From an uncultured delta proteobacterium (GTDB lineage Bacteria > Myxococcota_A > Polyangia > Fen-1088): DNA of 64,000 bases. The position numbers and the translations under genes were made by a program. The stretch lies in assembly GCA_963767925.1 (NCBI GenBank), contig CAVYGB010000001.1:128001-192000 (forward strand). The letters run 5' to 3'. Each line of letters opens with the position of its first letter. The stretch's first letter is position 1. The notes under the pieces were generated by a model. That model saw nothing but the letters and a program-made list of their open reading frames with translations, ran no database searches and was not told the DNA's origin. Shown here piece by piece: positions 2,551 through 42,860 of this stretch.

Positions 2551-3285
2551 TCAGTCGTTGCGGGCGCCGGAGCTGGCCCAGGTGCGGATGGTCTGGATCT
2601 GCTCGGCGGTCAGCGGGGGCTTGCGCACCGGCGGGTTGCCGAGGTTCTCGCCCGACTGCGGCGGCATACGCACGGGGTTGTTGCCCTGGGGCGTGACGTA
2701 GTTGAGGAGGGTGTTGACCCGCCCGGGGATGGTCCCCACCCGCGGGATCTCGTTGACCAGCAACATGTACGAGCGGTCCTTCATGCCGGCGTTGAACAGG
2801 AAGTACTGATCGCGGGGCACGCTGTGGCAGGCGTTGTTGGGCGCCGTGCAGCCGGGGGCGAGGATCTCGGTGAAGATGCGGGTGAAGGTCGGCCCGGCCG
2901 GTGCGGCCGGGGCCGCGTCGGTGCTCGGCGCGCCGGTGTCGAGGCGACCGGCATCCACCCGGGGCGCGCCGCCCGCGTCGGCCCGGACCACGCCGCCGCT
3001 GCCGCCGCTCGGCACGCCGCCCGCGCCGCCTGCGCCGCCCCCTGCTCCCCCCGCGCTGCCCGCGACCGGGCCCCCCGTGCCGGCCACGGGCGCGCCGCCT
3101 GTCCCTGCGCTCGCCTGCCCACCGGCGCCACCGGTCCCGGCGGGTGCCGGGGCGGGTGCGCCGGCCACCGGGGCCGGCGGCGTGGGGGGGATGTCGACGT
3201 GGGGAACACAGCCCACCAGCGCGAAGCCGCCGATCAGCAGGAGGGGCCAGGTGGCGGGCAGACGGGGAGAGGGTCGCTTTTGCAT
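2551..3285 (-). CDS. Lipoprotein with C-terminal c-type cytochrome-like domain
   Basis: Lipobox LVGC, Gly/Ala linker, CTAPNNACH, RMPP, LTAEQIQTIRTW..GA. Confidence 0.7.
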   Translation of the reverse strand: MQKRPSPRLPATWPLLLIGGFALVGCVPHVDIPPTPPAPVAGAPAPAPAGTGGAGGQASAGTGGAPVAGTGGPVAGSAGGAGGGAGGAGGVPSGGSGGVVRADAGGAPRVDAGRLDTGAPSTDAAPAAPAGPTFTRIFTEILAPGCTAPNNACHSVPRDQYFLFNAGMKDRSYMLLVNEIPRVGTIPGRVNTLLNYVTPQGNNPVRMPPQSGENLGNPPVRKPPLTAEQIQTIRTWASSGARND

Positions 3286-3376
3286 CCGGTGCTCCTTGAG
3301 GAAGGGGAAGGCCAGGGTCGACCCGGACGCTACGAAAGCGGCCCGCCGGCCGCTTGAGACGTTCCTGAGAGTTCTC

Positions 3377-4774
3377 TCAATCGCGGCGCGCCGTGGGCGC
3401 CGGCGCGAGCGTCGGCAGCTCCAGGGCAAAGCGGGCGCCGCGCTCCGACGGCAGCAGCAGGATGTCCCCGCCGTGCTGGCGCGCCACCTCGCGCGCGATG
3501 GGCAGACCCAGGCCCGTGCCGCCGCCCGCCTTGCGCGTCCGGTAAAACGGCTCGAAGATCTTCGTCCGCTCCTCCGGCGGCACCCCGGGGCCCTCGTCGC
3601 TGACCAGGACGCGCACCCGCCCGGGGGCGGCGCCGTCGCGCTCGAGGGTGAGGCGCACCAGCCCCCCAGCGGGCGAGAACTTTAGGGCGTTGGCCACCAG
3701 GTTGTCGACCGCCCGCCGCAGGGCCGAGCCACTGCCGCGCACGATCACGCCCGGGGCCTCGCCCGCCGGCTCCTGCCGCAGCTCGAGGCCGCGCCGGCCC
3801 GCCTCGGGGCGGAAGGACTCGGCCGACGCGCGCAGCACCGGCAGGAGATCGATCTCCTGCTCGTCCATCATCACCTGCTCGGCCGCCGTCATCTCCAGCA
3901 GGTCGCGGGCCAGGGCCGCCAGCCGATCGATCTCCGCGCGCGCCTCCCGGACCGCCTGGCGCAGCTCGGCCGTGGTGCGCTCCTTGAACAGCGCCAGGTC
4001 CATCAGCGTGCGCATGCAGGCCAGCGGCGTCTGGATCTCGTGGGCCGCGTTGGCGATGAGGCGCTCCTGCCGGTCGCGCGCCCCCTGGAGCTGGCGGGTG
4101 GCCTCCTCGAGGGCGTCGCGCAGCTCGGCCACCTCGTCGCCGGTAGGGTCGGGGGGCAGGCGGCTCTCGAAGTCGCCCTCGCGCAGGCGGGGGAGCTGCT
4201 GGGTGACCGCGCCGATGCGCGCGCTCAGGCGCCGGGCCTGCCAGACCTGGATGGCGAACAGCAGCGCCGCCATGGCCGCGCAGACCGAGAGCGAGGCCTG
4301 GTAAAAGCTCGCCGTGGTGGCGTCCACCTCGCCCAGCGGCCGGGCCACCCAGAGAGGGAAGCGCTTGCCGTCGTGGGCGCTCACGACCACGGTCAGCTCG
4401 CGGGTGGGCTCGCCGTCGAGCGCCAGGCTTGAGAGCGGCTGCCCGGGCACGCGATCGGCGACGCTGGCCGGGACCTGGATGTCGGGCGGCACCTTGATCA
4501 GCGGGCGTCCGTGCAGGCCGTACACCGCCACCGCGCCGGCGGGCAGGGGCAGCTCGTGGGCGTTGGGGTTGGGGACGATGGGGGGCAGGTGGGGATAGCC
4601 GCGGGGGCCGTCGAACAGGGTGACGCTCTCGACCGCCGCCAGCTCGGCCAGGCCGCGGTCCATCGACCGCAGCAGGCTGAAGTGGAACAGCTCCCCGGCG
4701 ACGAGCACGCCACACAGCGTGCCGACCACGGGCAACACGGCGCCGAAGGCGAGCAGGCGGGTGCGGACCTTCAT
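3377..4774 (-). CDS. HAMP-domain sensor histidine kinase
   Basis: Two TM helices, HAMP, H-box AAHEIQTPL, NLVANALKF, DEGPGV, GTGLGL. Confidence 0.95.
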   Translation of the reverse strand: MKVRTRLLAFGAVLPVVGTLCGVLVAGELFHFSLLRSMDRGLAELAAVESVTLFDGPRGYPHLPPIVPNPNAHELPLPAGAVAVYGLHGRPLIKVPPDIQVPASVADRVPGQPLSSLALDGEPTRELTVVVSAHDGKRFPLWVARPLGEVDATTASFYQASLSVCAAMAALLFAIQVWQARRLSARIGAVTQQLPRLREGDFESRLPPDPTGDEVAELRDALEEATRQLQGARDRQERLIANAAHEIQTPLACMRTLMDLALFKERTTAELRQAVREARAEIDRLAALARDLLEMTAAEQVMMDEQEIDLLPVLRASAESFRPEAGRRGLELRQEPAGEAPGVIVRGSGSALRRAVDNLVANALKFSPAGGLVRLTLERDGAAPGRVRVLVSDEGPGVPPEERTKIFEPFYRTRKAGGGTGLGLPIAREVARQHGGDILLLPSERGARFALELPTLAPAPTARRD

Positions 4775-4781
4775 CGGAGCG

Positions 4782-5468
4782 TCACCCGGGCGGCGGGGTG
4801 GCGACGGTGAGGCGGAACCCGACCCCCCGCACCGCCTCGATGGCCACGTCGCTGGCCTGCAGCTTGGCCAGCTTGCCGCGCAGGTAGCCGACGTAGACGT
4901 CGATGACGTTGGGGGTGCCGTCGAACAGGGAGCCCCAGACCTTGGTCAGCAGCTCCGACCGGGTGAGGGTCTCGCCGGCGTGCCCGGCCAGCTCGTGAAA
5001 CAGGGCGAACTCGCGCCCGGTGAGGGTCTCCTCGCGCCCGCCGCGGATCAGCACCCGCCGGTTGCTGTCCACCTTGAGCGACCCGAGCTGGCGCACCAGC
5101 AGGTGCCCGCCGCCCCGCCGGTGCAGGGCCTCGAGGCGGGCCAGCAGCTCGCCGAAGTCGAACGGCTTGGGCAGGTAGTCGTCGGCCCCCGCCCGCAGGC
5201 CCACGATCCGCTCGCCCACCGTGCCGCGCGCGGTGAGCATGAGGACGGGCGTGTTCAGGCCGCGGTCGCGCCAGCGGCGCAGCAGGGTGACCCCGTCGGT
5301 GTCAGGCAGCGACCAGTCGAGCACGATGCCGTCGTAGGCGATCGCCTCCGCCTGCTGCGAGCCGGTCTCCCCGTCGGCGCAGGCGTCGACCTGGTGCCCG
5401 GCCTCGGTCAGCCCGCGCACCAGCAGGCGCGCCAGCTTGGTCTCATCCTCGATGACCAGCAGCTTCAT
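4782..5468 (-). CDS. OmpR-family response regulator
   Basis: MKLLVIEDE...LDWSLP...LTARG...GADDYLPKPF...NVIDVYVGYLRGKL...VRGVGF. Confidence 0.95.
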   Translation of the reverse strand: MKLLVIEDETKLARLLVRGLTEAGHQVDACADGETGSQQAEAIAYDGIVLDWSLPDTDGVTLLRRWRDRGLNTPVLMLTARGTVGERIVGLRAGADDYLPKPFDFGELLARLEALHRRGGGHLLVRQLGSLKVDSNRRVLIRGGREETLTGREFALFHELAGHAGETLTRSELLTKVWGSLFDGTPNVIDVYVGYLRGKLAKLQASDVAIEAVRGVGFRLTVATPPPG

Positions 5469-29538: not shown

Positions 29539-30360
29539 TCAAGACTCAGCCTCGGAGCGGCCTCCCGCGGTCCTCTTCGTCTCTTCGCGCGAGTAATCAT
29601 CCGCGCTGACGAACACGCCTGCGCCCAGCGCGGCCAGCCACTGCTCGGAGAGCGAGCGGCCGAACGAGGGGTCGTCCACGAGGACGCCGACCTCGATGTT
29701 GCGGTCCTGGCCGCGGGCGGTGAAGTTGGCGGAGGTGACGAGGGACAGGCGCTCGTCCACCACCATGCACTTGGCGTGCAGGCTCGAGTAGGAGCCGTGG
29801 ACGACGGCCCGCGGGTCGAAGTAGAGGGTGGGGCGCAGGGGGAAGCGCCAGTTTTCCAGGAAGAAGCGTTCGGCCCAGCGGGCGACATGGGCAGGTGCCT
29901 TGTCGCTATCACCCTGGCGGGGGATGTCCACGAAGAGGCGGGTTTCGACCTGGTGGCGCTGCATGGCCGCGTGCAGCGGTTCGAAGATCTCGGCGCCGTT
30001 GTCGAAGGCGTAGCCCGCTATCAGGACCGAGCGGCGGGCCCGGCTGAAGAGCTCGCGGACGACGGTGGCGGTGTCGCGGGCGGTGCCGCTGACCGCTTCG
30101 GGACCGGTCCACACCAGCTGGACCTGGGGGCCGGCGCGCCGCGCGCGCTCGGCGACCACCGCCGTGCTCAGATCGCGGGCGACCGCCGGAGGCAGGCCGC
30201 GTAGGGGGCCCAGGCGGCGCGCCAGGTGGGCCAGGCCCGAGGACGCCAGCGTCTCTTCATCGAGAGGCTCGCGCACCAGCTTGCGGTCGATGGCCCGGGC
30301 CAGCTCTTCCAGCTCCTGGGTCGACAGCGCGATCGGGGTGCCTGGAACGTCGCGGGGCAC
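29539..30360 (-). CDS. drmC: DISARM phospholipase D-like nuclease
   Basis: LVWTGPE...RDT, HKD motif LHAKCMVVD, TSANFT..G..RNIEVG. Directly downstream of drmB. Confidence 0.9.
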   Translation of the reverse strand: MPRDVPGTPIALSTQELEELARAIDRKLVREPLDEETLASSGLAHLARRLGPLRGLPPAVARDLSTAVVAERARRAGPQVQLVWTGPEAVSGTARDTATVVRELFSRARRSVLIAGYAFDNGAEIFEPLHAAMQRHQVETRLFVDIPRQGDSDKAPAHVARWAERFFLENWRFPLRPTLYFDPRAVVHGSYSSLHAKCMVVDERLSLVTSANFTARGQDRNIEVGVLVDDPSFGRSLSEQWLAALGAGVFVSADDYSREETKRTAGGRSEAES

Positions 30361-30369
30361 GGCCGCGCC

Positions 30370-32349
30370 TCATCGCGGGGACGGGAGAAAGGCCAGGTCC
30401 TCGGCGCCCAGTGTCGGTACCACCAGGGCACGGTCGAGGTACTGATTGAACCGCTCGCAAGAGCACTCTGCGACGAACAGACAGCCGTGGCAGGCGGCGC
30501 CTTCCAGGTAACGCTCGCCCAGGTCCGAGGCGGGGGAGTGTCCGGCGCAAACGGGGTCGTGTGAGCACAGGCTGCCCAGGTCGACGGCGCGTCGCAAGTG
30601 GCGTTCGAGATGGCGGCCTTGCTCCACCAGGCCGCCCAGGGTCCCCTCCGCCCCGGGAGTGCCGGTTGAGATGAGCAGCCCGGACATGGGGTGGTCGGTG
30701 TCGCCGGGCTCGGAGCAGTAGAGGCGCTCGACGAGCGAGCTGGCGCTGTAGCCGCACTCCAGCGAGAGGGCGTTCATCAGCAGGTGGGACAAGGAGTGCA
30801 GCATGTAGAAGCGCGCGCCGGGGAAGCGGATGTCTGGCAGCTCGTCCAGGCGGACGCCCATCGATTCGGCCTGGTGGCGCCGCCAGGCCTCGAAGCCCTT
30901 GCGCAGCTCGGTCTCGCGCTTGCGGACCGTGGGGCGCTGCTCCCAGCGGGCGACGGAAGTGGCGGACAGTTGCAGAAAGAGGCCCTCACCGTTGATCTCG
31001 GCAGCCGGGAGCCAGTCCGTGTGCAATCCCAGGCGCGCGGAGGTGACCCGCAGGTCGAACTCCCCCTGCAGGTCAGCGGCGGGCGCTTCGAGCCGGGTGA
31101 ACCCGAGCTGGACGCGCACCTCGCGCAGGCGGGGAACCAGCACGACCTTCTCCACGAGCGGCGGCAGGTCGGGATCGCGGGGCAGGGTGGCGGCGTGGAA
31201 GGCGGCGCCGGGCGGGGGCATGTCGCCGCCGCGCTCGAGGGACCGCGTCGTGAGGCAGCGCCACTCGGCGGAGCGCAGGGGTTCCAGGGTCGGGCGGCGG
31301 TCCTCGCGAATGGCCTGGATGGTGTCGAAGATCTCCTGGTCCGCATAGTCGGCGAGCTTGCGGCCCGTCTGCTTGCGAACGAAGGGAAGGTCCGTCATGG
31401 CCTCGACCGGCGCCAGGAAGGTCCAGCAGGCGGAGACGGCGTCGTGGAGGGCGCGGCTGGGATCGGGAATGCTCAGACCGCTCACCACCTGGGCGAAATA
31501 GGCGTTGCTGGCCGCGCGGGAGAGCAGGCGGAGCTGCTCCTTGCATTCCTGGTCGGATTCACGACCCAGCCAGGGGCGCTGGCCCGAGCAGGGGCCGTTC
31601 GCGTTCGGGGCGTAGGCCCGGACCAGGGGCTGCGGCGGGGCGTCGCAGGAGGTGCACTCGACGAGGATCTCCGAGACGTCGCCGGAGGCGCCTTCCCGCA
31701 GCCGGACGATGGGGCTCGGGCAGATGGGCTGATCGCCGGCTCGGTGCGCGAATCGGGCCCAGCGAAACTCCTCGATGTGCCCGTGGCGGCAGGCAAGCAC
31801 GAAGCGGGCCGGGAGGCAGCGCCCCTTGCCGCCGCGGTCGCAGGCGTGCTCGTAGGGGGCCCGCCGCTGGTCCTGCAGATCGTTGCCCGGCACCAGCAAC
31901 CGGCAGCGCTGGCAGAAGAAGGAGGCCGGGAACTGCAGGACCTGGACCCCCTGGCTGGGCAGGTGCTGGCGGTCATCGGAGACCGGCGGTATCCGGAAGG
32001 CGTGGTCCTCGGACAGCACGCCCCGCTCGGCCTCTTTCATGCGAGCGGCGATGATCTGCCGGAGTCGGGGCTCCTCGATGAACGTCGTCGAGCTGGCGTC
32101 GCGGTAGCGCCAGAAATCCAGGCCCCCGACCAGCACCGCCTCGTTCAGCAGGTCCATCAGCGCGCCGGGGCCGTAGGTCGACACGGTCTGGCTGGCGCGC
32201 GCCGTGCCGACGAAGTTTTGCGTGGTCGCGCCACCGCTCGCGCGCCCGGCGCCCTTGAACCACGGCTTGCGTCTGGGCGGCAGGCGTCCCGCCGGCGCGC
32301 CCGCGTCCTTCGTGCGCGGCGCGGGCGTCTTACTCTTCGGCTGCGCCAT
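30370..32349 (-). CDS. drmB: DISARM DUF1998 protein
   Basis: R.SQ.VSTYGPGALMDL, RFVLAC.HGHIEEF, HSLSHLLM, GTLGGLV, CSHDPVC...GAACHGC. Own SD (AAGGAGG) and ATG at 32349. Confidence 0.92.
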   Translation of the reverse strand: MAQPKSKTPAPRTKDAGAPAGRLPPRRKPWFKGAGRASGGATTQNFVGTARASQTVSTYGPGALMDLLNEAVLVGGLDFWRYRDASSTTFIEEPRLRQIIAARMKEAERGVLSEDHAFRIPPVSDDRQHLPSQGVQVLQFPASFFCQRCRLLVPGNDLQDQRRAPYEHACDRGGKGRCLPARFVLACRHGHIEEFRWARFAHRAGDQPICPSPIVRLREGASGDVSEILVECTSCDAPPQPLVRAYAPNANGPCSGQRPWLGRESDQECKEQLRLLSRAASNAYFAQVVSGLSIPDPSRALHDAVSACWTFLAPVEAMTDLPFVRKQTGRKLADYADQEIFDTIQAIREDRRPTLEPLRSAEWRCLTTRSLERGGDMPPPGAAFHAATLPRDPDLPPLVEKVVLVPRLREVRVQLGFTRLEAPAADLQGEFDLRVTSARLGLHTDWLPAAEINGEGLFLQLSATSVARWEQRPTVRKRETELRKGFEAWRRHQAESMGVRLDELPDIRFPGARFYMLHSLSHLLMNALSLECGYSASSLVERLYCSEPGDTDHPMSGLLISTGTPGAEGTLGGLVEQGRHLERHLRRAVDLGSLCSHDPVCAGHSPASDLGERYLEGAACHGCLFVAECSCERFNQYLDRALVVPTLGAEDLAFLPSPR

Positions 32350-32417
32350 CAGGCATCTCCTCCTTCGACCTGGCCCCGATCCCGCACGATCGGCAGCAGG
32401 CGGCACGGCCGGCGCGC

Positions 32418-35400
32418 CTACTTCTGCTCGCCTGCATCTCGTTGCTCCGCGTTGCCGAGGCTTCGCCGGGCGAGCCACAGGGACACGGGCGCCTCCACGT
32501 CCCGCATCGAGGTCGGCGCCTGGAAGCGGGCGGCATCCGCATCGAGGGCGACACCGCTGTCCTCCAGCCGCGTGCGCAGCAGAGCCTGGCGCTTGCTGCA
32601 GCCCTGATCGAAACGCGAGTACACCCGCGGCTGCTCGCCCTTGCTGGCGCCCTGGACGATGCGATCCCAGGAATCGAACAGAACTCCCGCACGCATGCGG
32701 ACGTCGCGGGCGATCTTCTCCGCAACCTCGGGGGTCCCATCGACGGCTGCGCAGGTCGCGGCGCGCTCGGCGATCTGGTCGATGACCCGGTCGCGCTGGG
32801 CGAGGTTGTCGCGGATCGAGCCGGCAGCGCCCGGGGTGATCAGCGCTGGCAGCCCCAGGCGGGTCATCGCCACTAGGGCGCCGGCCAGGCCCCGTTCGAG
32901 GGCGGGGATGGAGAACGGGGTCACGCTGGTGGCCTCCACGTTGGCGTAGAAGGCCTCGTGGTAGGCCTGGAAATGCTCGTAGTGCGAGCGGTCGCGCGGA
33001 CGGTAGGCGTTGAACGCGACCACGACAAGGCCGGGACGGTTGCGGTCGCGGCCGACGCGGCTGGTGGCCTGGATGTATTCGCTGGTTGTCTTGGGCTGGC
33101 CGGCCACCACCATCAGGCCCAGGCGGGGGACGTCCACTCCGACCGAGATCATGTTGCTGGCCAGGGTCACGTCGACGGTCTGGTTGCCGCCATGGGCCTG
33201 CTCCAGCCGGCGCTTGGCCTCCGTGATCCGCTGGGTGCTCTCCCGGCTGGTCAGCTCGAGCGGCTCGCTGTGCAGGTGCCGGACCTGGAACCAGGGGCTG
33301 GGGCCGTCGTGATCCTCGGGCACACGCTTGTCGGCCTGCGCGCAGCGGGTGCGCACCTCGTCCTCGACAAGGCGGCGCATGCCGCCCAGCTCGCGCAGGC
33401 TGTTGAAGTACCCCACCAGGGTCATGTACGTGTCGGCCAGCTCGGGGCCGTCCGGGAGCTGCTCGTACGCCCGCTGCGCGGCAGTGAGCAGGGCGCTGTA
33501 GATCCGAAGGAGGACGGCCTTCACCGCCCGCCCCGGAGCGGCGACGCCCAGGTAGAGGCGGCCGTGTCCGCCCCTGCTCGTGGGCCCCGAAGAAGGAGTC
33601 CGAGGCGTCGATCCCGGCCGGGGGAAATACGGCGGACGGCCGGGCGAACAGCGCGCGGATCTGCTGGCGGGCGCGGCGGACGGTGGCCGTCGAGGCGATG
33701 ACCTTGGGTCGCAGCGGGCGCCCGTCGGGGCGCTCCCGGGCGCACAGGCCATCGACCGCCATCTCGTAGAGGCCAACCATGGTGCCCAGCGGGCCGGAGA
33801 TCAGGTGCAGCTCGTCCTGGATGATGAGCTCAGGCGGGCGCAGGCCGTCGGGCAAGGCCTGCCCGCGGGCGGCGTCGGCCGGTCGGTCCATGTGACCGAC
33901 GAAGGCGCGGCCGTCACGGGCCAGCACCCGCCCGAACAGCGCCGCCGTCTCGCCGCGGAAGGGCAACATGGCCAGCTTGTCGACGGTGGCGATCACGAAG
34001 CCGGGTAGCTCGCGGTAGAGCAGCTCGTCGATGAACAGCACCGGGATGCCGTCGCCGCTCGCCAGCGTGAACGGGCAGGTGCCGTCGGTGGACACGCAGC
34101 CGACCCGCACCTCCGGGAAGCGCACCCCCTCCTCGCGCACGTCGAGGCTGGCCCGCGACAGCGGCCGCTGGCACCACGGGCAGCTCGTCAGCGGGCAGGG
34201 GATGGCGTCGCCGGGTTGCTCCCGGTAGGCCTCGAGAAGCTCCTTCATCCCCTTGACGTCGTTGGCGGTGGCCGCCTTGCCGACCCAGAGGCCGAGCGAG
34301 AAGCGCACGCTGCCCAGCCGCCCCGGATCGGCTTGCCGCAGCAGCTCCAGGGCGCAGACGAGGGTGGCGGCTCGCCCGAGCTGGTCGAGGGTCAGCAGGC
34401 GCAGGGTGTAGCGCAGCAACACCGCCACCCCGAGCCCCCCGTCCGGGCGGGCGGCCCCGCGCAGCCGGCGCAGGATCAGGATGAAGGCCGCCAGCCCCAG
34501 GTAGGCCTCGGTCTTGCCGCCGCCGGTGGGAAAGAAGATCAGCTCCACCAGCTCGCGGTCGTCGTGCCCGTCGTCGGCCACACCGGGGAGGCTGAGCAGG
34601 AGGAAGGCGAGCTGGAACGGGCGCCAGGCCGGCACGACGTTGGTCCGGGAGCGGTCGCGCTGCTTCGCCTGGTCCGCCATGGCCCGGTTGGCGAGCCGGA
34701 AGGCCTCCCGGACCTGGTCGTCGCTGGCCAGCAGGTCGATCCCCTCGCGGATGCGGTCGCGCGCGCGCCGGGCCTTGTCCGCGAGCTGCCGGGCAAAACT
34801 CGCGCGCCGGCCGGTCAGGGCGGCGCCCTTGCCCGCCTCGCGCTCGATCCAGGCGGCGTAGCCGTCGACCAGGCCGGTCAGCGCCGCCCGCACCGCCGCG
34901 CCGTCGGCCAGCCCCGCGAGCGCCTCCATGCCCAGGGTGACCCCCGCCCCCAGGTTCTCCCGGGTCTCGACGAGGGGCACCACCGCCCGGGGCATCCACA
35001 CCGTGCGCGCGCCGATCACGCGCCCGGTGGCGGGATCGGGGTCGGCGATCGGCTCGGCGGAGATGCCGTGCCCCACCGCCCACTCGCGTTGCCCCCGGTA
35101 CTGCAGGTCCGCCGTGCGATCGTCCTCGTCGTCGAGCCGCTCGCCCCGCTGCTTGGGCCAGGCGACGAGGGCATGTGACGAGTCGATGGTGACTGCCAGC
35201 TCGACCTGGAACACGAGCGCCTGATCGGCCTCGCGCCCATCGAGGGGGCGGCGGCAGTTCACGATGAAGACCGAGAGCGCCCGGGTGCCCTCGGGGAGGC
35301 CGGGGGCGGGGAGGAGCTGGTATTCCACCTCGAGGCTGTCCGGCTGCCCGTCGCCGGCGTCGGCGCCGTCCCCGGTGGAGCCGCCCGGCGGGCCGGCGCT

Positions 35401-36033
35401 GCCCGGAACTCGAAGGCGCCCGGTCGTGCCGGTGAGGGCGATGGGAATGGACACGGGGGCGTGCGGGATCCGGCGCCATAGCAGGCGCGCGGGGGACGGC
35501 CCGCCGCCGGCGGCGTTCTCGGCGGCGTCGCCGGAGGCCGGCCCGGGCCGTTGCCCGTCTCGATCGCCGACCTGGCCCCTGCCGCGCCCCACCCCGGCTC
35601 CATGCTCCCCGTCACCAGCGTTTCCGCGGAAATCTTCCTCGGATTCGGGGAGGTAGTCGGCCCAGCCGAGGGTGGCGGTGACCCTGTCCACCCCGGGCGG
35701 TAGCAGCAACGACAGCCCCATCGACGCGGGCCACAACATTCGCCGCTTCGGTTTCTGCTCCTCCGGCTCGGAGGTGGCATCGTCAGTCCCGGCGGCCATC
35801 TCCTCGTCGGGCTCCTTGTCCTCAACGGGAGACTCGTCGTCCTCGTTGAGAACCGCCACCCGCCGCGCCTCCGGCGCTAGGAAGCCGGTCAGGTACCAGC
35901 GGGAGGGTGCCCGGGGCAGCAGTTCGTCGGTGTGGGCGGGTTCGAAGGGGCCGATCAGGTCGGCATGCAGCGCCGAGACGAACTGCTCGCGGATGGCGGC
36001 ACTGCGTGCGGCCCGGGTCGCGGGGTCGCTCAC
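32418..36033 (-). pseudogene. drmA: DISARM SF2 helicase, split by a single frameshift near 33570-33590
   Basis: Frame A: DLIGP, PSRWYLTGFL, FPTGGGKTEAY, IIQDELHLI, ASTAT. Frame B: RLYLGV, GYFNSLRELGG, ELTSR, NMISVGVD, EYIQATSRVGR. GTG start overlaps the drmMI stop. Confidence 0.9.
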
Positions 36034-37496
36034 GAGGCTTTCCTCTTGCCGGGCTTCGCGCGGCTGGCGTTCTTGGCCGTCGCAACCGGCTTCCGCGGCG
36101 CCCGTCTTGGGCTGCGGCGGGGGCCGCTGGTTTCGGACACCGCGGCGGCGGCGTCGGTGGTGGCCGGATCGTCCGCGGTGGCGTCTTCGGCCGCGGCGCG
36201 CTCGGCGTTCAGGGCGAACAGGCGATCGATGACCGCATCGCTGAAGCGCTCGAAGGCGGTCCGCTGTTCCGCCGTGGTCGGGGTCTCGAAGAGTGGGACG
36301 TCGATCTCGGACCATCCGTAGGCGGCCAGGACGGCCCGATCCATCTCCTCGTGCAGGTGCCGAAGCTCGACGATGGCGGGGTCGCGGTTGGCGGCGTCCT
36401 TGAGCTGATTGTAGGTGGTGGTGAGGCCCTGATCGCGCCCGACCATCAGTTTGGCACGAGCGTCATAGAGTCGCTTGCCAATGTCGTTGAGCTGGCCGGA
36501 GTTGGCGAATCGGTTCGAGTCGGGAAAGGGGAAGGTATCGAAGCAGTCGCTTGCGGCGTAGCGAAGGTCGGTCTTCATCGAGGAGGATAGGAGGCGCGCC
36601 CAGAGCTCATGAATGCGCGATTGGAGAGTCCCGAAGTCGGCGGCACGTTTGAGAATAAAGACGTACATACTTTCGGCGAATACGCGATCAGTATCCTGGA
36701 GTGAAAAACATAGGTGCTTCGTGACCCTCGATGTTACGAGGCATCGATCGTTCATTCCTAGAGCCGCGGTTAAAGCCGGTCGTTTGTCTGCGTAGTGCCA
36801 CCAGTACTTTCGGTGCGCGGCTCGGTTCACGCGATCGCGTTCCGGCTTAACTTTCTCACGAACGATATGAAGTAGATCGGGCCAGCGCTCCGCCTCTTGG
36901 AGGCTCATGTCTCCAAAATTGATCACGAAACGATCGAAGTCCTGCGTCGGGCTTGTGTTGACCTCCTCGCCCCCGAGATAAGGAAAAATGAGTTTTTCGT
37001 TGGCCGCATTCTGGCGGATCAGCGCCTTCCGTTCCTCGGGCGTCAACACGAAGCCCATCCCTAGGACATACGAACCCACGTAGCAAAGGCCCTTGTTTGC
37101 CCGGAGCGGTCTCGGGTCGGGACGCTCTTCTGCGTTCAGAAGCCGCGAATTGATATTGGTGACCTCGCGGCCATCGAGACGTTTCAGGAGCGCCGGCAGG
37201 TCACATAGATGGCCCTTCGCAATGTGCACCAGTGAAATCGAGACCGCAGCCTCACCTGGCCAAGGCATGTTTCGGACCGCATCATAAATTGCGCCGCTTT
37301 CGCTCAATATTCGTTGTAGCCCAGATTGTCGAGTATCGCCCTGAGCTATCGTCTTCGTCGCGACCACCTCGCGCGCCTGCGGCGTCAGGGGAGGAAAGCC
37401 GCGCGAGCCGGTCTGGACCCGGGTATCGTCCTGCTCGGCCAGCGTCTCGTCGTCGATATCCTCGCCGTCCTCGGTAACGTCCGCCGAGGTGGACAC
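36030..37496 (-). pseudogene. drmMI: DISARM class 1 adenine methyltransferase, C-terminal/TRD half only
   Basis: AT.TIAQGDTR, PWPGEAAV, GS.VLGMGF, YLGGEEVN, KVKPER, WWHYAD, SRIHELWA, RYAASDCFDTFPFP, GLTTTYN, DRAVLAAYGW. No SAM-binding or NPPY/F motif in the ORF. Confidence 0.82.
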
Positions 37497-37724
37497 AGGT
37501 CGGGCTCGTTTCTCAATACAACCTTAGCAACTTGGGCGCACCGGGGCTTCTGACAGCCCCATGCCAACTTGGGCTGTCCAGGGGGTCGAGTCCAATTGGG
37601 AAATCCGCGTGCAATGGACGAGCGAATTTCGCGGGCCTGATAACCGCCCGTTTCCCGGTTTCCGAGATAGAAGAACTGACCGCATTTGGATCACAGAGCG
37701 ATACGGGCTCAGAAAGGCACACAC

Positions 37725-37985
37725 ATGTTCAATCGAAAATGGGTCTTCGGCTCCATCCTGGGAGGCATTCTCGCAGCCGCGCTGTCTTTCGTCGCGACCG
37801 AGAAAACCGCTGTCGCTTGCGGCGTGAGCATATACGACGCGATCGGGGCGTGCCCGCAGGGGTATTGTGACTATAGCCAGGACGTAGGAAGGTGCCTATG
37901 TGCGCCTGAGTTCATCGGGTTCCCGTGCTTTACTACATACTGCAATTGCACCGAGGGCCGACGCTGCCGAAATCAAAGCTGCTGA
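37725..37985 (+). CDS. Secreted 10-Cys EGF-like peptide
   Basis: SD AGAAAGG, signal peptide ending AVA, 55-aa mature region with 10 Cys including CLCAPEFIGFPC. Confidence 0.8.
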   Translation: MFNRKWVFGSILGGILAAALSFVATEKTAVACGVSIYDAIGACPQGYCDYSQDVGRCLCAPEFIGFPCFTTYCNCTEGRRCRNQSC

Positions 37986-38294
37986 TTTGACGTTTAGCCC
38001 AAGCGAGGATGCGAGGCTTGTAAAGCGAGCACGCTTCCTCGCATACGGGCCACTCCCGAAGTTCGTCTCTTGGTCTTGGGAGCGAACCGCGTGTGGTAGC
38101 CTCGCTGGTCTAGCGAAAGGTAATTCTGCGACGCGTCACGCAGGGCGACCTCTGCCGTCGGTGCCATCTGGCGAGCAGAATCGGCCTGCGGCTAACTGCG
38201 TGTCTCCAGGCGCGGAATAACGCGCCCACAGGTCTTTTTCCATTTTCCTGGTTACAACCCTGGGCTCGTCGAACTGCAGAAAGGAACGTCCATC

Positions 38295-39056
38295 ATGAAA
38301 CCGAGTTCGAGTCTTCCGAAATGGCTCATCCGTATCGGCCTGACCTGTTTGCTTGTGATGGTCGGGGCCGCCGGCGGGTTGGCCATCCGGTCTGTGAAGT
38401 CCAAAGTGCCAATCGAAGGTTTAGTTTCGGCCCTCCTGGACCCGCCGTTGAGGAGGGGAACCGCCTCGGCAGACAAGCAGGACGACCTGAAGACATCTTG
38501 CAATGTCCCGCTTCTTACCGTTTCCAATGACGTAGAGAAGGATCCGCGAAGCCCGCGCTACGATCCTGCCGCGCTCGCTTACCTCGGAGTCGAGCCCCGA
38601 GAGATTTTCGCAAAAGAGCCCCGCAATGGGCGCTGGGCAACCACGCTGGAATCGACCATCGGTCGGCAGATGCTCGCTGATGCCACGGTCATGGTTCCCC
38701 AGATCAAGGGCGGTGTCGTAGAATGTCGGACCAGAGCCTGCAAGGTCACCTGGACGCCCGGGACCCTCGAAGATGATAAGCGATTCGAGCGCGCGCTGGG
38801 CTTGGCCGGGCCCGCGTCGACGTATCGTCAGGTCCGTGAACCGGACGGGCGAAACGGCATCATATACCTCTTCCGGCCGGTCGAATACCTGCGAACCCAA
38901 TATGGTGATCGCGCCTCAGATTTCGACGCGAGCGACGCTGACGCTTACGCGAGAACATACCTCGCTCGCAGAGCAATGCTTCTGTCCGACTTTCGCGCCG
39001 GGAAGCGCAAGTTGCCACCTCTGATAGCTGACGCCCGGTTGCCGGAGGTGAAATGA
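38295..39056 (+). CDS. Membrane-anchored hypothetical protein (E-x-R-x3-WA...CX4C motif)
   Basis: SD AAAGGA, N-terminal TM helix, KEPRNGRWA...VECRTRACKV. Confidence 0.75.
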   Translation: MKPSSSLPKWLIRIGLTCLLVMVGAAGGLAIRSVKSKVPIEGLVSALLDPPLRRGTASADKQDDLKTSCNVPLLTVSNDVEKDPRSPRYDPAALAYLGVEPREIFAKEPRNGRWATTLESTIGRQMLADATVMVPQIKGGVVECRTRACKVTWTPGTLEDDKRFERALGLAGPASTYRQVREPDGRNGIIYLFRPVEYLRTQYGDRASDFDASDADAYARTYLARRAMLLSDFRAGKRKLPPLIADARLPEVK

Positions 39057-39643
39057 TTCGGCGAATTGTATATGTCGTAGCGCCGATTTTTCTGGGTCTA
39101 TTTGCCGTTCTCGCCTGGCCGTTTAAAACGCAGACATCGCCGGTGATGTCAGAAGAAGTTTCCAGCGAAGCTCAGAGCAGGCCCGGGAGCGTTTCGAAGA
39201 GTCGAGTGCAAGCGACTAATACAGTGTCACTCGCTTTGAAGGCCGTTGAACTTGCCCGTCGGGAACCTCAAGCGGAGATCCAGCGACCATTGTCGGACTT
39301 CGACAGGATTGCGATAAGGGATCGTCGTGCGACAAATCTTAAGGGCGGGATCATGGACGCCATGGACGAGCGAGACGCTGTAGTCGAAGAGACCTGCCCG
39401 GGATTTTCAAACCTGGAAAACACGACCCTGGAAGTCGTATTCCAAGTGGAGGCGAGCCAGGGTAAGGCGGCCGTTCGGAACCCCTCGTTACGTGTCCTGA
39501 GCGGCGCCCCGATAGAGCCGAGCCTCGAGCGTTGCTACCTGGGCGTGATCTCCTCGTTCGAACTGACGGCGCGGCCCTCGAGAGACTTCCTCGACTACGA
39601 AGGGTCTGTCGACATCCAATCCGTGTTTGGAGCAAAACCCTGA
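39053..39643 (+). CDS. Membrane-anchored protein with possible TonB-C/AgmX-like C-terminal domain
   Basis: N-terminal TM, ATGA coupling to upstream gene, TCPG...LEVVFQV...LERCYLGVISSFEL. Confidence 0.65.
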   Translation: MIRRIVYVVAPIFLGLFAVLAWPFKTQTSPVMSEEVSSEAQSRPGSVSKSRVQATNTVSLALKAVELARREPQAEIQRPLSDFDRIAIRDRRATNLKGGIMDAMDERDAVVEETCPGFSNLENTTLEVVFQVEASQGKAAVRNPSLRVLSGAPIEPSLERCYLGVISSFELTARPSRDFLDYEGSVDIQSVFGAKP

Positions 39644-39756
39644 GAATTCCGGCAGAGAATGCCTTCTGTTCGGTCGTCAGGTGGCATTGGCAGTAACAAG
39701 ACCGCTCTGTCGGCTGGTCCTGGTAGTTCTCGGGCCGGCCGCGTCGCCACTAATCC

Positions 39757-40683
39757 CTAGAGCTGCGCCAGCCACCAGGGGAGCGAGCGGTGGTACCAGG
39801 CGAGCATGTCGGCGTCGAGCTGGGCGGTTTCGGCGGCGCGGCTGGCCCAGCAGGTGGTGAGGGCGATGCGGTAGCGGACGAAGGCTTCCAGGTGGGTGGG
39901 CCAGGGGGCGGGGAGGGGGTGGCGGGCGAAGTAGTGGGTGAGGAAGGTGGCTTCGCTGGCGGGGGCGTCGACCTGGCCGGGGTTCTCCCAGGCGGCCTTG
40001 CGGATCGAGGTCACCGCCACCGCGACGTCGTGCAGGTACCAGTGGTGGCAGGCGTCGTCGAAGTCGAAGGCGGTGACCTGATCGTCGTCGACGCTGAGGT
40101 TGCCGAGGTGCAGGTCGGCGTGGGTCAGGCCGAAGACGTCGCGGCCGGTGGCGAGGCCCTGCATCCAGGTGACGAGGGTGCGCAGGGCCTTCTGGGCGGG
40201 GGCGGTGGCGGGGTCGTGGGCCTGCAGGGCGATCTGGAAGACGCGGTCCTCGTCCCAGTTGCCGCGGCCGCTGGGGCCGGTGCGCCGGCTGGCGTGCATG
40301 TGCAGGTCGGCCAGCAGGGTGGCCCAGCTGGCGATCACCTCGGGGCGGTAGTCGGCGGGCTTCTCGGCGGGGCGGCCGGGGGCCTCTTGCAGGCAGGTCA
40401 GGAAGACCGGGTCGCCGGCGACGCGGCCTTGCTCGCACAGGCGGCCGGCGGTCGAGCGGATCGGGCGGGCCACCCGCAGGCCGGCGCCGGCGAGGTCGTG
40501 CATCCAGTCGATCTCCCCCTGCACCTCGCGGGCGGTGCGGTAGCTGGCGGGGGTGACCCGCAGGTACACCGTGCGTCCGTCGCGGCGGGCGCGGAACACC
40601 TCGTTCGACGAGCGGCGCACCAGCTCGGGCGGCGCGCCGGGGTCGATCTGCCAGGGGGCGAACAGGTCCTCGGGGGACGCCAC
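39757..40683 (-). CDS. APH-family phosphotransferase (homoserine kinase type II-like)
   Basis: N.VF, YLRVT, EIDWM, HADLHLGN, FDFDD. GTG start inferred. Confidence 0.88.
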   Translation of the reverse strand: MASPEDLFAPWQIDPGAPPELVRRSSNEVFRARRDGRTVYLRVTPASYRTAREVQGEIDWMHDLAGAGLRVARPIRSTAGRLCEQGRVAGDPVFLTCLQEAPGRPAEKPADYRPEVIASWATLLADLHMHASRRTGPSGRGNWDEDRVFQIALQAHDPATAPAQKALRTLVTWMQGLATGRDVFGLTHADLHLGNLSVDDDQVTAFDFDDACHHWYLHDVAVAVTSIRKAAWENPGQVDAPASEATFLTHYFARHPLPAPWPTHLEAFVRYRIALTTCWASRAAETAQLDADMLAWYHRSLPWWLAQL

Positions 40684-40706
40684 GGGTGGCTCGCCGCTCC
40701 CGGGGC

Positions 40707-41837
40707 TCAGCGGGGCATCAGGCCGACGAAGGTCGGCTTGGTCTGGACGGCGGTCTTGCCCTGCAGGGCCAGGCTGCCGTCGCCGTTGATGCGGAAGACG
40801 AGCACCTCGCCCGAGCCCTGGTTGGCGACCAGCAGCCACTTGCCGGCGGGGTCGAGGGTGAAGTCCCGCGGCGTCTTGATCAGGCCGCCCGCGGTCTCGT
40901 GGCCCTTCGGCTCGAGGCGGCCGGCGGCGTTCACCTCGTAGATCGACAGGCTGTGCGACAGCCGGTTCGAGCCGTAGACGAAGCGGCCGCTGGGGTGGAC
41001 CTCGACGTGGGCGGCGGCGGTCTCGGTGGTGCCGGCCGGCACGTTGCTGACCGTCTGGGGATCCGACAGCCGGCCCTCGATCGGATCGAAGGCGAAGCTG
41101 GTCATGGTGCCGTTGGTCTCGTTGATCACGTAGGCGAAGCCGCGCGAGGGGTGAAAGGCGATGTGGCGCGGGCCGGTGCCGGTGGGCACCGTGACCTGGG
41201 CGGCGGGGGTCAGCTTGCCGGTGGCGGCGTCCATGCTGAACTGGGTGATGGCGTTGCCGTCGCGGCAGGGGACCAGCACGAACTTGCCGTCGCCGGCGGT
41301 CATGGCGTGGTGGGCCTGGGGGGCGGTGGCCTGCAGGTCGGTGGGGCCGCCCACGCCGCCGTCTTCCCGGATGAGGTGGGTCGAGATGTGGCCGCTGGCG
41401 AAGTGGGCCACCACCACCCACTTGCCGCTGGGGTGGACCGACAGATGGGTGGCGCCGGCGGCGCCCTCCACGGTCACCTCGTTGATGCGGGTCAGGTTGC
41501 CGTCGGCGGGGTTGATGGCGTAGGCCACGACCTTGGCGGGGGTGCGGTTGATGCCGTAGAGGAACTTCTTGTTCGGGTGCCAGGCCAGGTAGCCGGAGCC
41601 GGGGCCCGCCTCCACGGTGGCGACGGGCGTGAGCGCGCCGCTGCCGAGATCGAAGCGCAGCACGCGGATCTCGGGGCTGTCCGAGCCGCTCGTGTAGACG
41701 AAGGCCTCGGGGCCGGCGGCGGCGGAGGCGCCGGGCGCGCCGTTGCCGTTCTTGCCCGCGCAGGCCAGGGCCAGGGGCAGGGCGCCGAGGAGCCAGGTGG
41801 CGAGGAGGAGGGACCGTCGCGGGCGCTGGGAAGGCAT
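40707..41837 (-). CDS. 6-phosphogluconolactonase-like beta-propeller lactonase
   Basis: GTGPRHIAFHP, AYVINE, FVYGSNR, TPRDF, LLVANQ. Lipoprotein signal. Confidence 0.9.
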   Translation of the reverse strand: MPSQRPRRSLLLATWLLGALPLALACAGKNGNGAPGASAAAGPEAFVYTSGSDSPEIRVLRFDLGSGALTPVATVEAGPGSGYLAWHPNKKFLYGINRTPAKVVAYAINPADGNLTRINEVTVEGAAGATHLSVHPSGKWVVVAHFASGHISTHLIREDGGVGGPTDLQATAPQAHHAMTAGDGKFVLVPCRDGNAITQFSMDAATGKLTPAAQVTVPTGTGPRHIAFHPSRGFAYVINETNGTMTSFAFDPIEGRLSDPQTVSNVPAGTTETAAAHVEVHPSGRFVYGSNRLSHSLSIYEVNAAGRLEPKGHETAGGLIKTPRDFTLDPAGKWLLVANQGSGEVLVFRINGDGSLALQGKTAVQTKPTFVGLMPR

Positions 41838-41849
41838 GGGGCGCCGATG

Positions 41850-42860
41850 CTACCCCAACCCCCTTGCGCGCCCCATGGCGATCCGCGCGGAGGTTGTCTC
41901 GTTGATGGCGCGCAGCAGGGAGCTGCCGTCGGCGGTGTCCTGGGTGATCTCCCAGATCATGACGCCGCTGCCCCGATCGAGGGCCAGGGCCGTCTTGCGC
42001 CGGATGGTCGAGAGGCCGTTGTAGTGCACGCCGCCGACCTCGTCCTTCTGGGGGGCGGCGGGGTCCTGGCTCACGAGCTGGCGGTAGGTCCGCTGCGGCA
42101 GCTTGCCGTAAAAGGGGAGGCCGAGGACCAGCTTGTCGCGGGGGAGGCCGCGCTGGCTCCAGTAGTCCAGGCAGGTGACGGCGTAGTCGTAGGTCGAGTG
42201 GGGACGCTGGCCCTGGTCGTCGTTGTCGTAGGCCATGATGTTGATGAAGTCGCTGCAGGCGAAGACCTCGGGCAGGACGCCGGCGCCCTGCGCGCCGTCG
42301 CCGACGACCGCCGCGGTCAGCAGCCGCTGCGGTCCCAGGCGGGCGCGCAGCTCTTTCATCAAGGTGACGTTGTGGCGGGCCGACTCGCCCGCGTCGGGGT
42401 ACTCCCAGTCCATGTCCACGCCGTCGATGCCGTGTTGCTCGACAAGGGCGCCGAGCGCCTCCACGAACACCGCCCGGGCGGCGGGGTTGGCGGCCAGGAC
42501 CTCGAAGGCGCTGTCGTCGCCGCCGTGCCAGCCGCCCACCGAGAGGGCCACCTTGACCCCGTGGGCCCGGGCCCCGCGCACGATGGCCGCCAGGCGATCG
42601 GGGTGGGGGAGGGGGCGCAGCCGCCCGTCGGGCTCGGGGAAGGCGAAGGCGTAGTTGATGTGGGTCAGCTCGCGGTAGCGCACCCCCTCGGGCGCGACCC
42701 ACGACGGGAAGTAGCCGATCACCCGGAACGCCCGCTCCGCCGCCGGCAGCGGCGCGGGCCCGGCCGGCGCCCCGGCACCGCCGCCCCGGCCGGCGCAAGC
42801 GGCGCCCAGGGGGAGCAGCCCCAACCCACCGATCACCTTGCGCCGATCTGGTCCGCTCAT
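41850..42860 (-). CDS. Glycoside hydrolase family 18 (chitinase-like) lipoprotein
   Basis: RR signal, THINYAF, SVGGW, DGVDMDWEYP, IMAYD, GLPFYG, GVMIWE. Confidence 0.92.
   Translation of the reverse strand: MSGPDRRKVIGGLGLLPLGAACAGRGGGAGAPAGPAPLPAAERAFRVIGYFPSWVAPEGVRYRELTHINYAFAFPEPDGRLRPLPHPDRLAAIVRGARAHGVKVALSVGGWHGGDDSAFEVLAANPAARAVFVEALGALVEQHGIDGVDMDWEYPDAGESARHNVTLMKELRARLGPQRLLTAAVVGDGAQGAGVLPEVFACSDFINIMAYDNDDQGQRPHSTYDYAVTCLDYWSQRGLPRDKLVLGLPFYGKLPQRTYRQLVSQDPAAPQKDEVGGVHYNGLSTIRRKTALALDRGSGVMIWEITQDTADGSSLLRAINETTSARIAMGRARGLG

Follow-up and report, generated by a model that had tools for sequence, protein, structure and literature searches.

The 64,000-nucleotide (nt) stretch of DNA analysed here (the window; positions 128,001 to 192,000 of contig CAVYGB010000001.1 in assembly GCA_963767925.1, from an uncultured delta proteobacterium) carries a cassette of three plus-strand genes that encode a small cysteine-rich peptide and two larger proteins, designated A and B. 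Comparison of the cassette with its paralogues and homologues firmly supports the view that the three genes form a real, recurrent module, with A and B as its core and a variable, secreted Cys-rich peptide as its accessory. According to the open reading frame (ORF) table and the sequence, the peptide gene (37725..37985) encodes a precursor of 86 amino acids (aa) and is followed by the genes of protein A (38295..39056, 253 aa) and protein B (39053..39643, 196 aa). The ATG of B overlaps the TGA of A (ATGA), an overlap through which B is probably translationally coupled to A. An in-frame TTG start at 37686 would give a peptide precursor of 99 aa (37686-37985), compared with 86 aa from the ATG at 37725. 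A Shine-Dalgarno-like AAAGG (37713..37717, plus strand) lies 7 nt 5' of this ATG, and the sequences 5' of A and B are GAAAGGAA and GGAGGTG, respectively. A preliminary description of the stretch had listed three same-strand ORFs of these sizes with a Shine-Dalgarno sequence, and the coordinates, the AAAGG and the ATGA overlap were all confirmed.

Single-protein searches of the window genome returned eight matches for A and two for B, and profile searches returned 11 and six, respectively. All six B copies directly follow an A gene, and in relatives B was found on the same contigs as A. At four further A loci of the window genome, the A gene is preceded by a small same-strand ORF that has 7–12 Cys and an N-terminus resembling a signal peptide, and the peptide-A pair continues with B at 4/5 loci, the window's own included. 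As a control, all six frames of the 9.34-Mb genome were scanned for ORFs of up to 130 aa whose N-terminus is basic and leads into a 12-residue hydrophobic window, and whose remainder contains 6 or more Cys, these accounting for 10% or more of it; Arg had to stay below 12%. Only 10 ORFs passed. Five of them share the strand of an A-family gene and are located up to ~330 nt upstream of it, against a rough chance expectation of ~0.003; the linkage of peptide and A is not due to chance. Run on 36 A loci of 14 genomes, this filter found an upstream same-strand peptide ORF at seven (five in the window genome and two in a same-genus genome, G001), and no ORF passed the filter elsewhere in the 36 loci or on the opposite strand. 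Looser inspection revealed secreted ORFs with 6 Cys at four more loci, ending ~350 nt upstream of the A frame at L018, with a lipoprotein-like ORF in between, and ~1 kb upstream of the A match at L029, L033 and L044. Loci were also collected with a degenerate DNA pattern, which samples only the family members that use those codons; in metagenomes it yielded 31 loci, 30 of which match the A profile, with an upstream peptide at two (L094 and L103). At L103, the peptide gene and A are separated by the gene of a lipoprotein whose Cys pair resembles that of B. The preliminary description had proposed that homologues of A recurrently lie downstream of small secreted Cys-rich ORFs and had regarded an absence of such linkage as fatal to the module; since the linkage recurs in the same genome, in relatives and in metagenome contigs, the proposal stands.

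The window peptide begins with a signal-like N-terminus (residues 1–31; 37725..37817, plus strand) composed of MFNRK, an uncharged stretch and EKTAVA, and signal cleavage would occur after AVA. The remaining domain (residues 32–86; 37818..37982, plus strand) has 55 aa and 10 Cys in the arrangement C-x10-C-x4-C-x8-C-x-C-x8-C-x4-C-x-C-x5-C-x4-C, and the spacing 10,4,8,1,8,4,1,5,4 was obtained again when recomputed after TAVA, as the preliminary description had it. Scans of the 86-aa protein against Pfam (E ≤ 1) and NCBIfam gave no family, EGF families included, and an NCBIfam scan of four paralogous peptides gave nothing. The peptides that precede A at five loci of the window genome, with 7–12 Cys, are unrelated to one another, and an all-against-all BLAST of 10 mature cassette peptides returned weak matches only (best E ~8e-5, in a tiny database). 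Six of these 10 peptides are present in a protein collection of ~15 billion sequences, in unnamed clusters of 1–2 members. AxA-type sites were found 0–2 residues from the first Cys in seven cassette peptides, and ribosome-binding motifs resembling GGAGG, AGGAG or AAGG were read from the sequences upstream of 8 to 9 of the 10 peptide genes. Related peptides were nevertheless detected: those of L094 and L103 are identical at 39/69 positions, with all 8 shared Cys aligned and a ratio of nonsynonymous to synonymous substitution rates (dN/dS) of ~0.55, and the A proteins of the two loci are 71% identical. Similarly, the framework C-x2-C-x4-C-x9/10-C-x7-C-x5-C is common to peptides of G001 and G031, which belong to different taxonomic families.

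Protein A was modelled by AlphaFold2 with a membrane helix at residues 9–34, a low-confidence linker and a putative periplasmic alpha/beta domain at ~80–250, and protein B with a helix at residues 2–20, in keeping with the N-terminal membrane segment previously claimed for both partners. The periplasmic domain of A contains the motifs YDP, EPRNxxWA and ECRTxxC, and the conserved positions are Y89, D90, E108, R110, W114, A115, E119, C144, C149, R226 and P250, among them an invariant Cys pair. No Pfam family was found for A at E ≤ 1 and no NCBIfam family for the A of the window; one paralogous A gave a lone sub-threshold match to XopAP (E 0.023, NCBIfam). A sequence search of the PDB with the A and B profiles returned nothing below E 0.1, and comparison of the A model with the PDB by Foldseek and VIA-align gave no clear fold match. 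The A domain is described as a confidently predicted fold that matches no solved structure, probably a new alpha/beta domain. A family profile built from eight paralogues was searched against 1.84 billion representative proteins, with 1104 matches at E ≤ 0.001, 505 at E ≤ 1e-10 and 32 at E ≤ 1e-30, so that the family comprises at least 1104 clusters at 50% identity. Ten representatives were looked up, and all were unnamed or 'hypothetical' except two sigma-factor fusions; a Pfam scan of 95 members found no family common to them, one member carrying Sigma70_r4; and a protein-atlas search with A returned only unnamed clusters, mostly from Myxococcota. The family occurs in 13/41 relatives, in 8/89 genomes of the same taxonomic family and, with only seven candidates per genome scored, in 7/401 genomes sampled across the phylum. 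All 12 of the loci that the DNA pattern retrieved from named records match the A profile, and these belong to Myxococcus, Corallococcus and metagenome-assembled genomes (MAGs) of Steroidobacteraceae and Thiohalocapsa. The matches in the two kinds of MAG extend the family beyond Myxococcota, and one Steroidobacteraceae MAG (L064) has two divergent A-like genes, at 2805-3515 on the minus strand and 3599-4303 on the plus strand.

In the model of B, the N-terminal helix is followed by a disordered segment (22–53), further helices and a C-terminal domain at ~80–192, with a predicted local distance difference test (pLDDT) value of ~95 for residues 80–190. The protein has exactly two Cys, as previously claimed, at positions 115 and 161, and in an alignment of twelve B sequences only C115 and C161 are invariant. 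The Pfam scan returned only DUF2275 (E 0.14), below the cut-off of that family, and NCBIfam returned nothing at E ≤ 1 for the B of the window or for the scanned paralogous B. In a structure search with the B model, TolA/TonB-type chains filled 11/17 top rows and many of the Foldseek ranks, and the top-scoring solved chains were, by their titles, TolA domains complexed with phage or colicin-pathway ligands. The likeness is consistent but weak, and the assignment of a TolA/TonB-like fold to B is inconclusive. Of the 'TonB-C/AgmX-like tail' of the preliminary description, the weak fold likeness is what stood; no profile match was obtained to TonB_C (Pfam) or to the AgmX/PglI C-terminal domain (NCBIfam). 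TolA/TonB-type domains bind partner proteins, and TonB_C/TolA_C proteins work with an ExbB-ExbD or TolQ-TolR motor that is usually encoded nearby. A complex model of A (78–253), B (70–196) and the mature peptide scored 0.02, against a mark of 0.32, the partner's own fold being uncertain, and speaks neither for nor against binding.

The A domain was also found in fusion proteins. A-B fusions are represented by P0098 (329 aa) and by P0093 and P0157, in which A-B comes after an extracytoplasmic function (ECF) sigma factor and a membrane segment predicted as a helix. In other proteins a C-terminal A domain comes after an ECF sigma factor, then a membrane helix, then between one and three DsbA domains, and the A domains of these forms fall into one clade with support 99. 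The protein of this kind in the window genome (L043 1831-6435, on contig 2 at ~216.8-221.4 kb) combines regions 2 and 4 of an ECF sigma factor with a membrane segment, behind which come three DsbA/thioredoxin domains bearing CPFC-type motifs and finally the A domain; it would be a membrane-tethered sigma factor with periplasmic oxidoreductase domains of its own. A same-genus genome (L066, L040) encodes a similar ECF-sigma/DsbA/A protein as well as a DsbA-A form. One paralogous cassette encodes, in the place of B, a DsbA-like protein with a membrane anchor. A link to disulfide chemistry is supported by these fusions of the A domain with DsbA and by the DsbA neighbours. Another paralogous cassette, on the minus strand of contig 2 of the window genome (L075 3086-12459), stands in a 9.4-kb same-strand cluster with the order GT-C-like protein (565 aa), GT87-like protein, peptide, A, B, 169-aa protein, HTTM-domain protein, double DsbA and another GT-C-like protein, which shares 64% identity with the first. 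A further protein of ~550 aa, taken from its sequence as a multi-pass membrane protein, directly follows A-B at a peptide-less locus (L077 9118-10782); its other copy lies near another cassette (L075 1488-3125), and the two are 36% identical over their full length and match no Pfam or NCBIfam family.

The best account of these data, held with a confidence that stops short of even, is that A and B would constitute a periplasmic handling module, serving the oxidative folding, holding, export or immunity of fast-evolving disulfide-rich peptides. This model was chosen because of the ties to DsbA, the invariant Cys pairs, the tethered periplasmic topology and the partner-binding TolA/TonB-like domains. 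From the character of its N-terminus, the peptide precursor would be exported by Sec, and its Cys-rich domain would be received by the periplasmic, membrane-tethered A-B pair, as the strict linkage of the two genes, the A-B fusions and the translational coupling suggest. The pair might hold or present the peptide for disulfide formation by DsbA-type oxidoreductases of the host or of the cassette, and might then pass it towards the outer membrane and the exterior, or shield the producer from it; these steps are proposed because of the DsbA fusions and neighbours and the partner-binding role of TolA/TonB domains. The result would be a peptide knotted by disulfides and located outside the cell or on its surface, an antagonistic toxin or a signal, that diversifies fast while its handling proteins stay recognisable.

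Several observations weigh against this handling model. No upstream Cys-rich ORF was detectable at 25–29 of the 36 genome loci or at 29 of the 31 metagenome loci; because most A loci lack a detectable peptide, A-B was taken as the core and the peptide as the accessory, and the core job of A-B cannot depend on such a peptide. In a quick tree of A (43 rows; 7 of the 50 entered loci were left out because their profile match was too short), the peptide linkage is scattered, with 7 changes for 9 rows, and 66/500 shuffles gave values as low. One peptide-less A clade is conserved across five genera. The cassette of the window contains no DsbA, protease, transporter or outer-membrane gene. ExbB, ExbD, TolQ and TonB-dependent receptor domains were absent from 44 neighbours at six paralogous loci, and motor genes were found neither there nor beside the window cassette, the rest of the genome not having been searched. 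The uncharged stretch of the window peptide has 20 residues and could be a permanent membrane anchor. No homologue of this peptide was found in its own genome, in five relatives or in an index of 5.8 billion proteins, and an exact look-up did not find its ORF among the called proteins of the collection. Finally, the ECF-sigma fusions of A and A-B point to signalling and not to peptide maturation, and six records of Myxococcus and Corallococcus contain a distant A-like gene that overlaps the start of a gene for an FHA/sigma-54 activator (L059, A-like 2620-3297 and activator 3294-5201; also L058, L062, L063, L065 and L067). The A-like protein of these records has 225 aa, a membrane helix and the motifs EPRDxxWA and ECRTHLC, and matches the A profile with E values of ~1e-7 to 1e-11.

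The fusions and the FHA-linked genes would also fit an envelope signalling module, in which A-B would be an extracytoplasmic sensor or co-receptor and the Cys-rich peptide would be secreted as its ligand or modulator, signalling self or kin, with output through regulators that are separately encoded or fused, for example ECF sigma factors tethered to the membrane. A, alone or with B, is the periplasmic end of the ECF-sigma proteins (P0093, P0157, the contig 2 protein and that of L066), two paralogous cassettes have response regulators and kinases in their vicinity, one cassette has a LuxR-type gene divergent from it, and TolA/TonB-type domains bind partner proteins. The explanation is considered unlikely as it stands: the A and B of the cassettes have few cytoplasmic residues before the helix and so cannot signal alone, no regulator is conserved beside the cassettes, no promoter motif is shared upstream of the 10 peptide genes, and near-total divergence of the peptides with moderate divergence of A is unusual for a ligand and the receptor specific to it.

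If the long uncharged stretch were in fact an anchor, the three proteins could instead form an envelope membrane complex of three subunits, the small protein keeping its helix, its Cys-rich ectodomain being structural or adhesive, A-B tethering or spanning the periplasm as TolA does, and no diffusible peptide being released. All three proteins do start with a single hydrophobic helix, that of the peptide being long for a cleaved signal; B has the anchor, long linker and C-terminal domain of TolA/TonB; and one paralogous cassette is found amid GT-C-type glycosyltransferase-like membrane proteins. This arrangement was judged improbable in view of the AxA-type cleavage motifs close to the first Cys in seven peptides, of the rarity with which structural subunits diverge beyond recognition between paralogous loci, and of the low G+C content at third codon positions (GC3) and nearby transposases, which suggest accessory, mobile functions.

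The missing homologues of the window peptide and its absence from the called proteins would also fit a chance open frame beside a genuine A-B pair, as would its modest GC3 (68%) and a protein-atlas search that gave no homologue and a best score of 0.78. Such an accident is very hard to credit, as the position, strand, ribosome-binding site, N-terminus and Cys count of the ORF match those seen at four more loci of this genome as well as elsewhere, and only 10 ORFs of this kind exist in six frames of 9.3 Mb.

A strict toxin-immunity system is a narrower form of the handling model. The peptide would be a bacteriocin that enters its targets through Tol/Ton, and B, as a look-alike of TolA/TonB, would sequester it together with A in the periplasm of the producer. 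The C-terminal fold likeness of B and its top solved chains (TolA with phage or colicin-pathway ligands), the hypervariable peptides with their island-like composition and the position of the cassette within a defence island are compatible with this version, to which only a small probability was assigned; peptide-less A-B pairs are common, the paralogues of A and B may not have co-diversified with their peptides, and a periplasmic decoy leaves the exit of the peptide from the producer unexplained.

The composition of the cassette is atypical for the genome. The G+C content of 37725-39643 is 58.6%, compared with 71.6% for 1-36000, 73.7% for 39800-64000 and 71.2% for the genome, and the three genes have GC3 values of 62–69%, compared with 89–98% in native neighbouring genes. 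The preliminary description had called the block much poorer in G+C than the host genes, which is correct, its count of 31/60 at 39061-39120 being exact. The low-GC island (36300..39700) has 58.5% G+C, with ~53–61% in 400-nt windows, and includes a fragment of a defence gene, DrmMI, together with the cassette. GC3 is lowered in all peptide-bearing cassettes (60–82%), whereas the peptide-less copy conserved across genera is native in this respect (93%), and three cassettes have transposase or integrase genes nearby. Terminal direct or inverted repeats were sought around the island, and only short matches at chance level were found.

The spacer between the peptide gene and A (37986..38294, plus strand) has 309 nt, compared with gaps of only 0–200 nt in other cassettes, and is predicted to be strongly structured as RNA, with a hairpin just 3' of the stop codon. 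The minimum free energy of 37980-38300 was -138.8 kcal/mol, against -115.6 ± 5.2 kcal/mol for shuffled sequences (z -4.44; 0/100 shuffles as low), and the structure might set the ratio of peptide to partner expression. An Rfam scan of 36000-40500 gave no family, and a promoter and terminator scan gave nothing on the plus strand and no terminator-like site in the spacer. The 228 nt that precede the peptide gene contain two direct copies of a repeat beginning with CAACTTGGGC, at 37528-37546 and 37565-37583, 37 nt apart, which may be a regulator site or due to chance.

To the left of the cassette, a class 1 DISARM locus occupies 29539-37496 on the minus strand and looks decayed. PADLOC profiles matched DrmC (29539-30360), DrmB and DrmA. 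DrmB shares the long frame 30370-36315 with the first half of DrmA, whose C-terminal half lies in another frame (32418-33776), which indicates a frameshift or an assembly error. The DrmMI fragment (36030-37496) covers profile positions 930–1331 of 1347, the first two thirds being absent; it is as low in G+C as the cassette and abuts its upstream region. To the right, on the minus strand, are an APH-type phosphotransferase-like gene and a lactonase, and no remainder of DrmMI. A simple insertion of the cassette into drmMI was considered and rejected, as no N-terminal part of DrmMI lies across the cassette. A long ORF that starts beyond the cassette (39757-42798) matched no defence model and, in Pfam, only APH and lactonase domains. 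Among the 5027 PADLOC models, none matched A or B, and the neighbours matched DrmMI, DrmA, DrmB and DrmC. The cassette apparently sits in a decayed defence island. The adjacency to defence genes claimed earlier holds at this locus, in the form of DISARM; it is not a recurrent trait, since Pfam domains of the 44 neighbours at the six other A loci included no defence-type domain except one UvrD-like helicase.

With some hesitation, the cassettes are proposed to be an undescribed class in Myxococcota and some soil and sediment bacteria, in which hypervariable multi-disulfide peptides (cf. cone-snail-type cysteine frameworks) would be served by a dedicated apparatus of A and a TolA-like protein that folds, escorts or neutralises them, the A domain having been recruited as the sensing end of DsbA-bearing, membrane-tethered ECF sigma factors. 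If this is true, the cassettes are a new source of bacterial ribosomal multi-disulfide peptides that are made without the enzymes of RiPPs (peptides produced by ribosomes and modified after translation) and are invisible to current genome-mining rules. It would likewise give a first functional handle on the large orphan family of A, tie that family to periplasmic thiol-disulfide chemistry and membrane-tethered ECF sigma factors, and suggest a previously unseen bacterial way to handle or sense Cys-rich envelope proteins.

No description of the cassette or of the A family was found in the open-access literature, and the cassette was compared with known systems part by part. The first six Cys of the window peptide are spaced 10,4,8,1,8, which resembles the Cys spacing of EGF domains, whose fold has three disulfides (1-3, 2-4, 5-6), and CLCAPEFIGFPC fits the pattern C-x-C-x5-G-x2-C. 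Unlike EGF, the peptide has four further Cys and no Pfam EGF match at E ≤ 1, and the pattern occurs in only 1/10 cassette peptides, so that of the earlier label 'EGF-like' the pattern match remains, and neither the family match nor the recurrence. The absence of a RiPP-modifying enzyme, also reported earlier, was verified: the peptide gene is trailed only by A and B, neither of which matches an enzyme family, and at one paralogous locus HTTM-domain and DsbA-like proteins follow, in contrast to a RiPP cluster. A class II bacteriocin operon combines the peptide with an ABC transporter dedicated to it and with a small immunity protein; unlike such an operon, the cassette has no ABC transporter of its own or among the 44 neighbours, and its leader is Sec-like and not of the double-glycine type.

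The B model shares with TolA and TonB (PDB 6s3w, 4g7x, 1tol, 2x9a, 5lw8 and 2grx) an N-terminal helix, a long linker and a C-terminal alpha/beta domain. For the sigma-factor fusions, a precedent (PMC5826349) is SCO4117 of group ECF52, an ECF sigma factor with a transmembrane and extracytoplasmic C-terminal extension. Some A domains similarly end proteins with a sigma factor and a membrane helix, unlike the A of the window, which has no sigma part; extracytoplasmic parts made of DsbA plus A or of A plus B on ECF sigma factors were not found in a limited literature search. The bacterial cis-defensins, represented by xanthusin-1 of Myxococcus xanthus (ACS Omega 2024, PMC11561630), are likewise small, signal-bearing, disulfide-rich peptides of myxobacteria. 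The cysteine pattern used in that paper, CX(2,18)CX(3)CX(2,12)CX(4,17)CXC, is fitted by 0/10 cassette peptides, and defensin membership is not supported. None of the words 'operon', 'gene cluster' and 'neighbo' appears in its main text, which hence describes no partner genes. A likeness to bitopic periplasmic proteins of the PilO/GspL/GspM type, which carry a ferredoxin-like periplasmic domain behind a single membrane helix, was also considered and gave no clear assignment. With memberships in the EGF, defensin, TonB_C/AgmX, RiPP, class II and defence kinds unsupported or inconclusive, the cassette was rated as outside the known kinds of system.

The closest functional analogue found in the literature is the pathway by which Gram-positive bacteria make TMcins (Nur, Antwi and Dickey, mBio 2026, PMC13712780). 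TMcin clusters encode a helix-bearing peptide and a small membrane 'escort' of no known family, TmcE; the single disulfide is made by a cluster-encoded DsbA-like protein, the mature toxin retains the helix, and the pathway requires an ABC transporter as well as a protease. The cassette of the window differs from the TMcin clusters so described in having neither protease nor transporter, in the 10 Cys of its peptide, in its diderm host and in that A and B, which match no Pfam family, have no family in common with the Tmc proteins. It resembles them in combining a peptide that bears a hydrophobic helix with family-less membrane proteins, and two paralogous cassettes further share with them the presence of DsbA-like genes.

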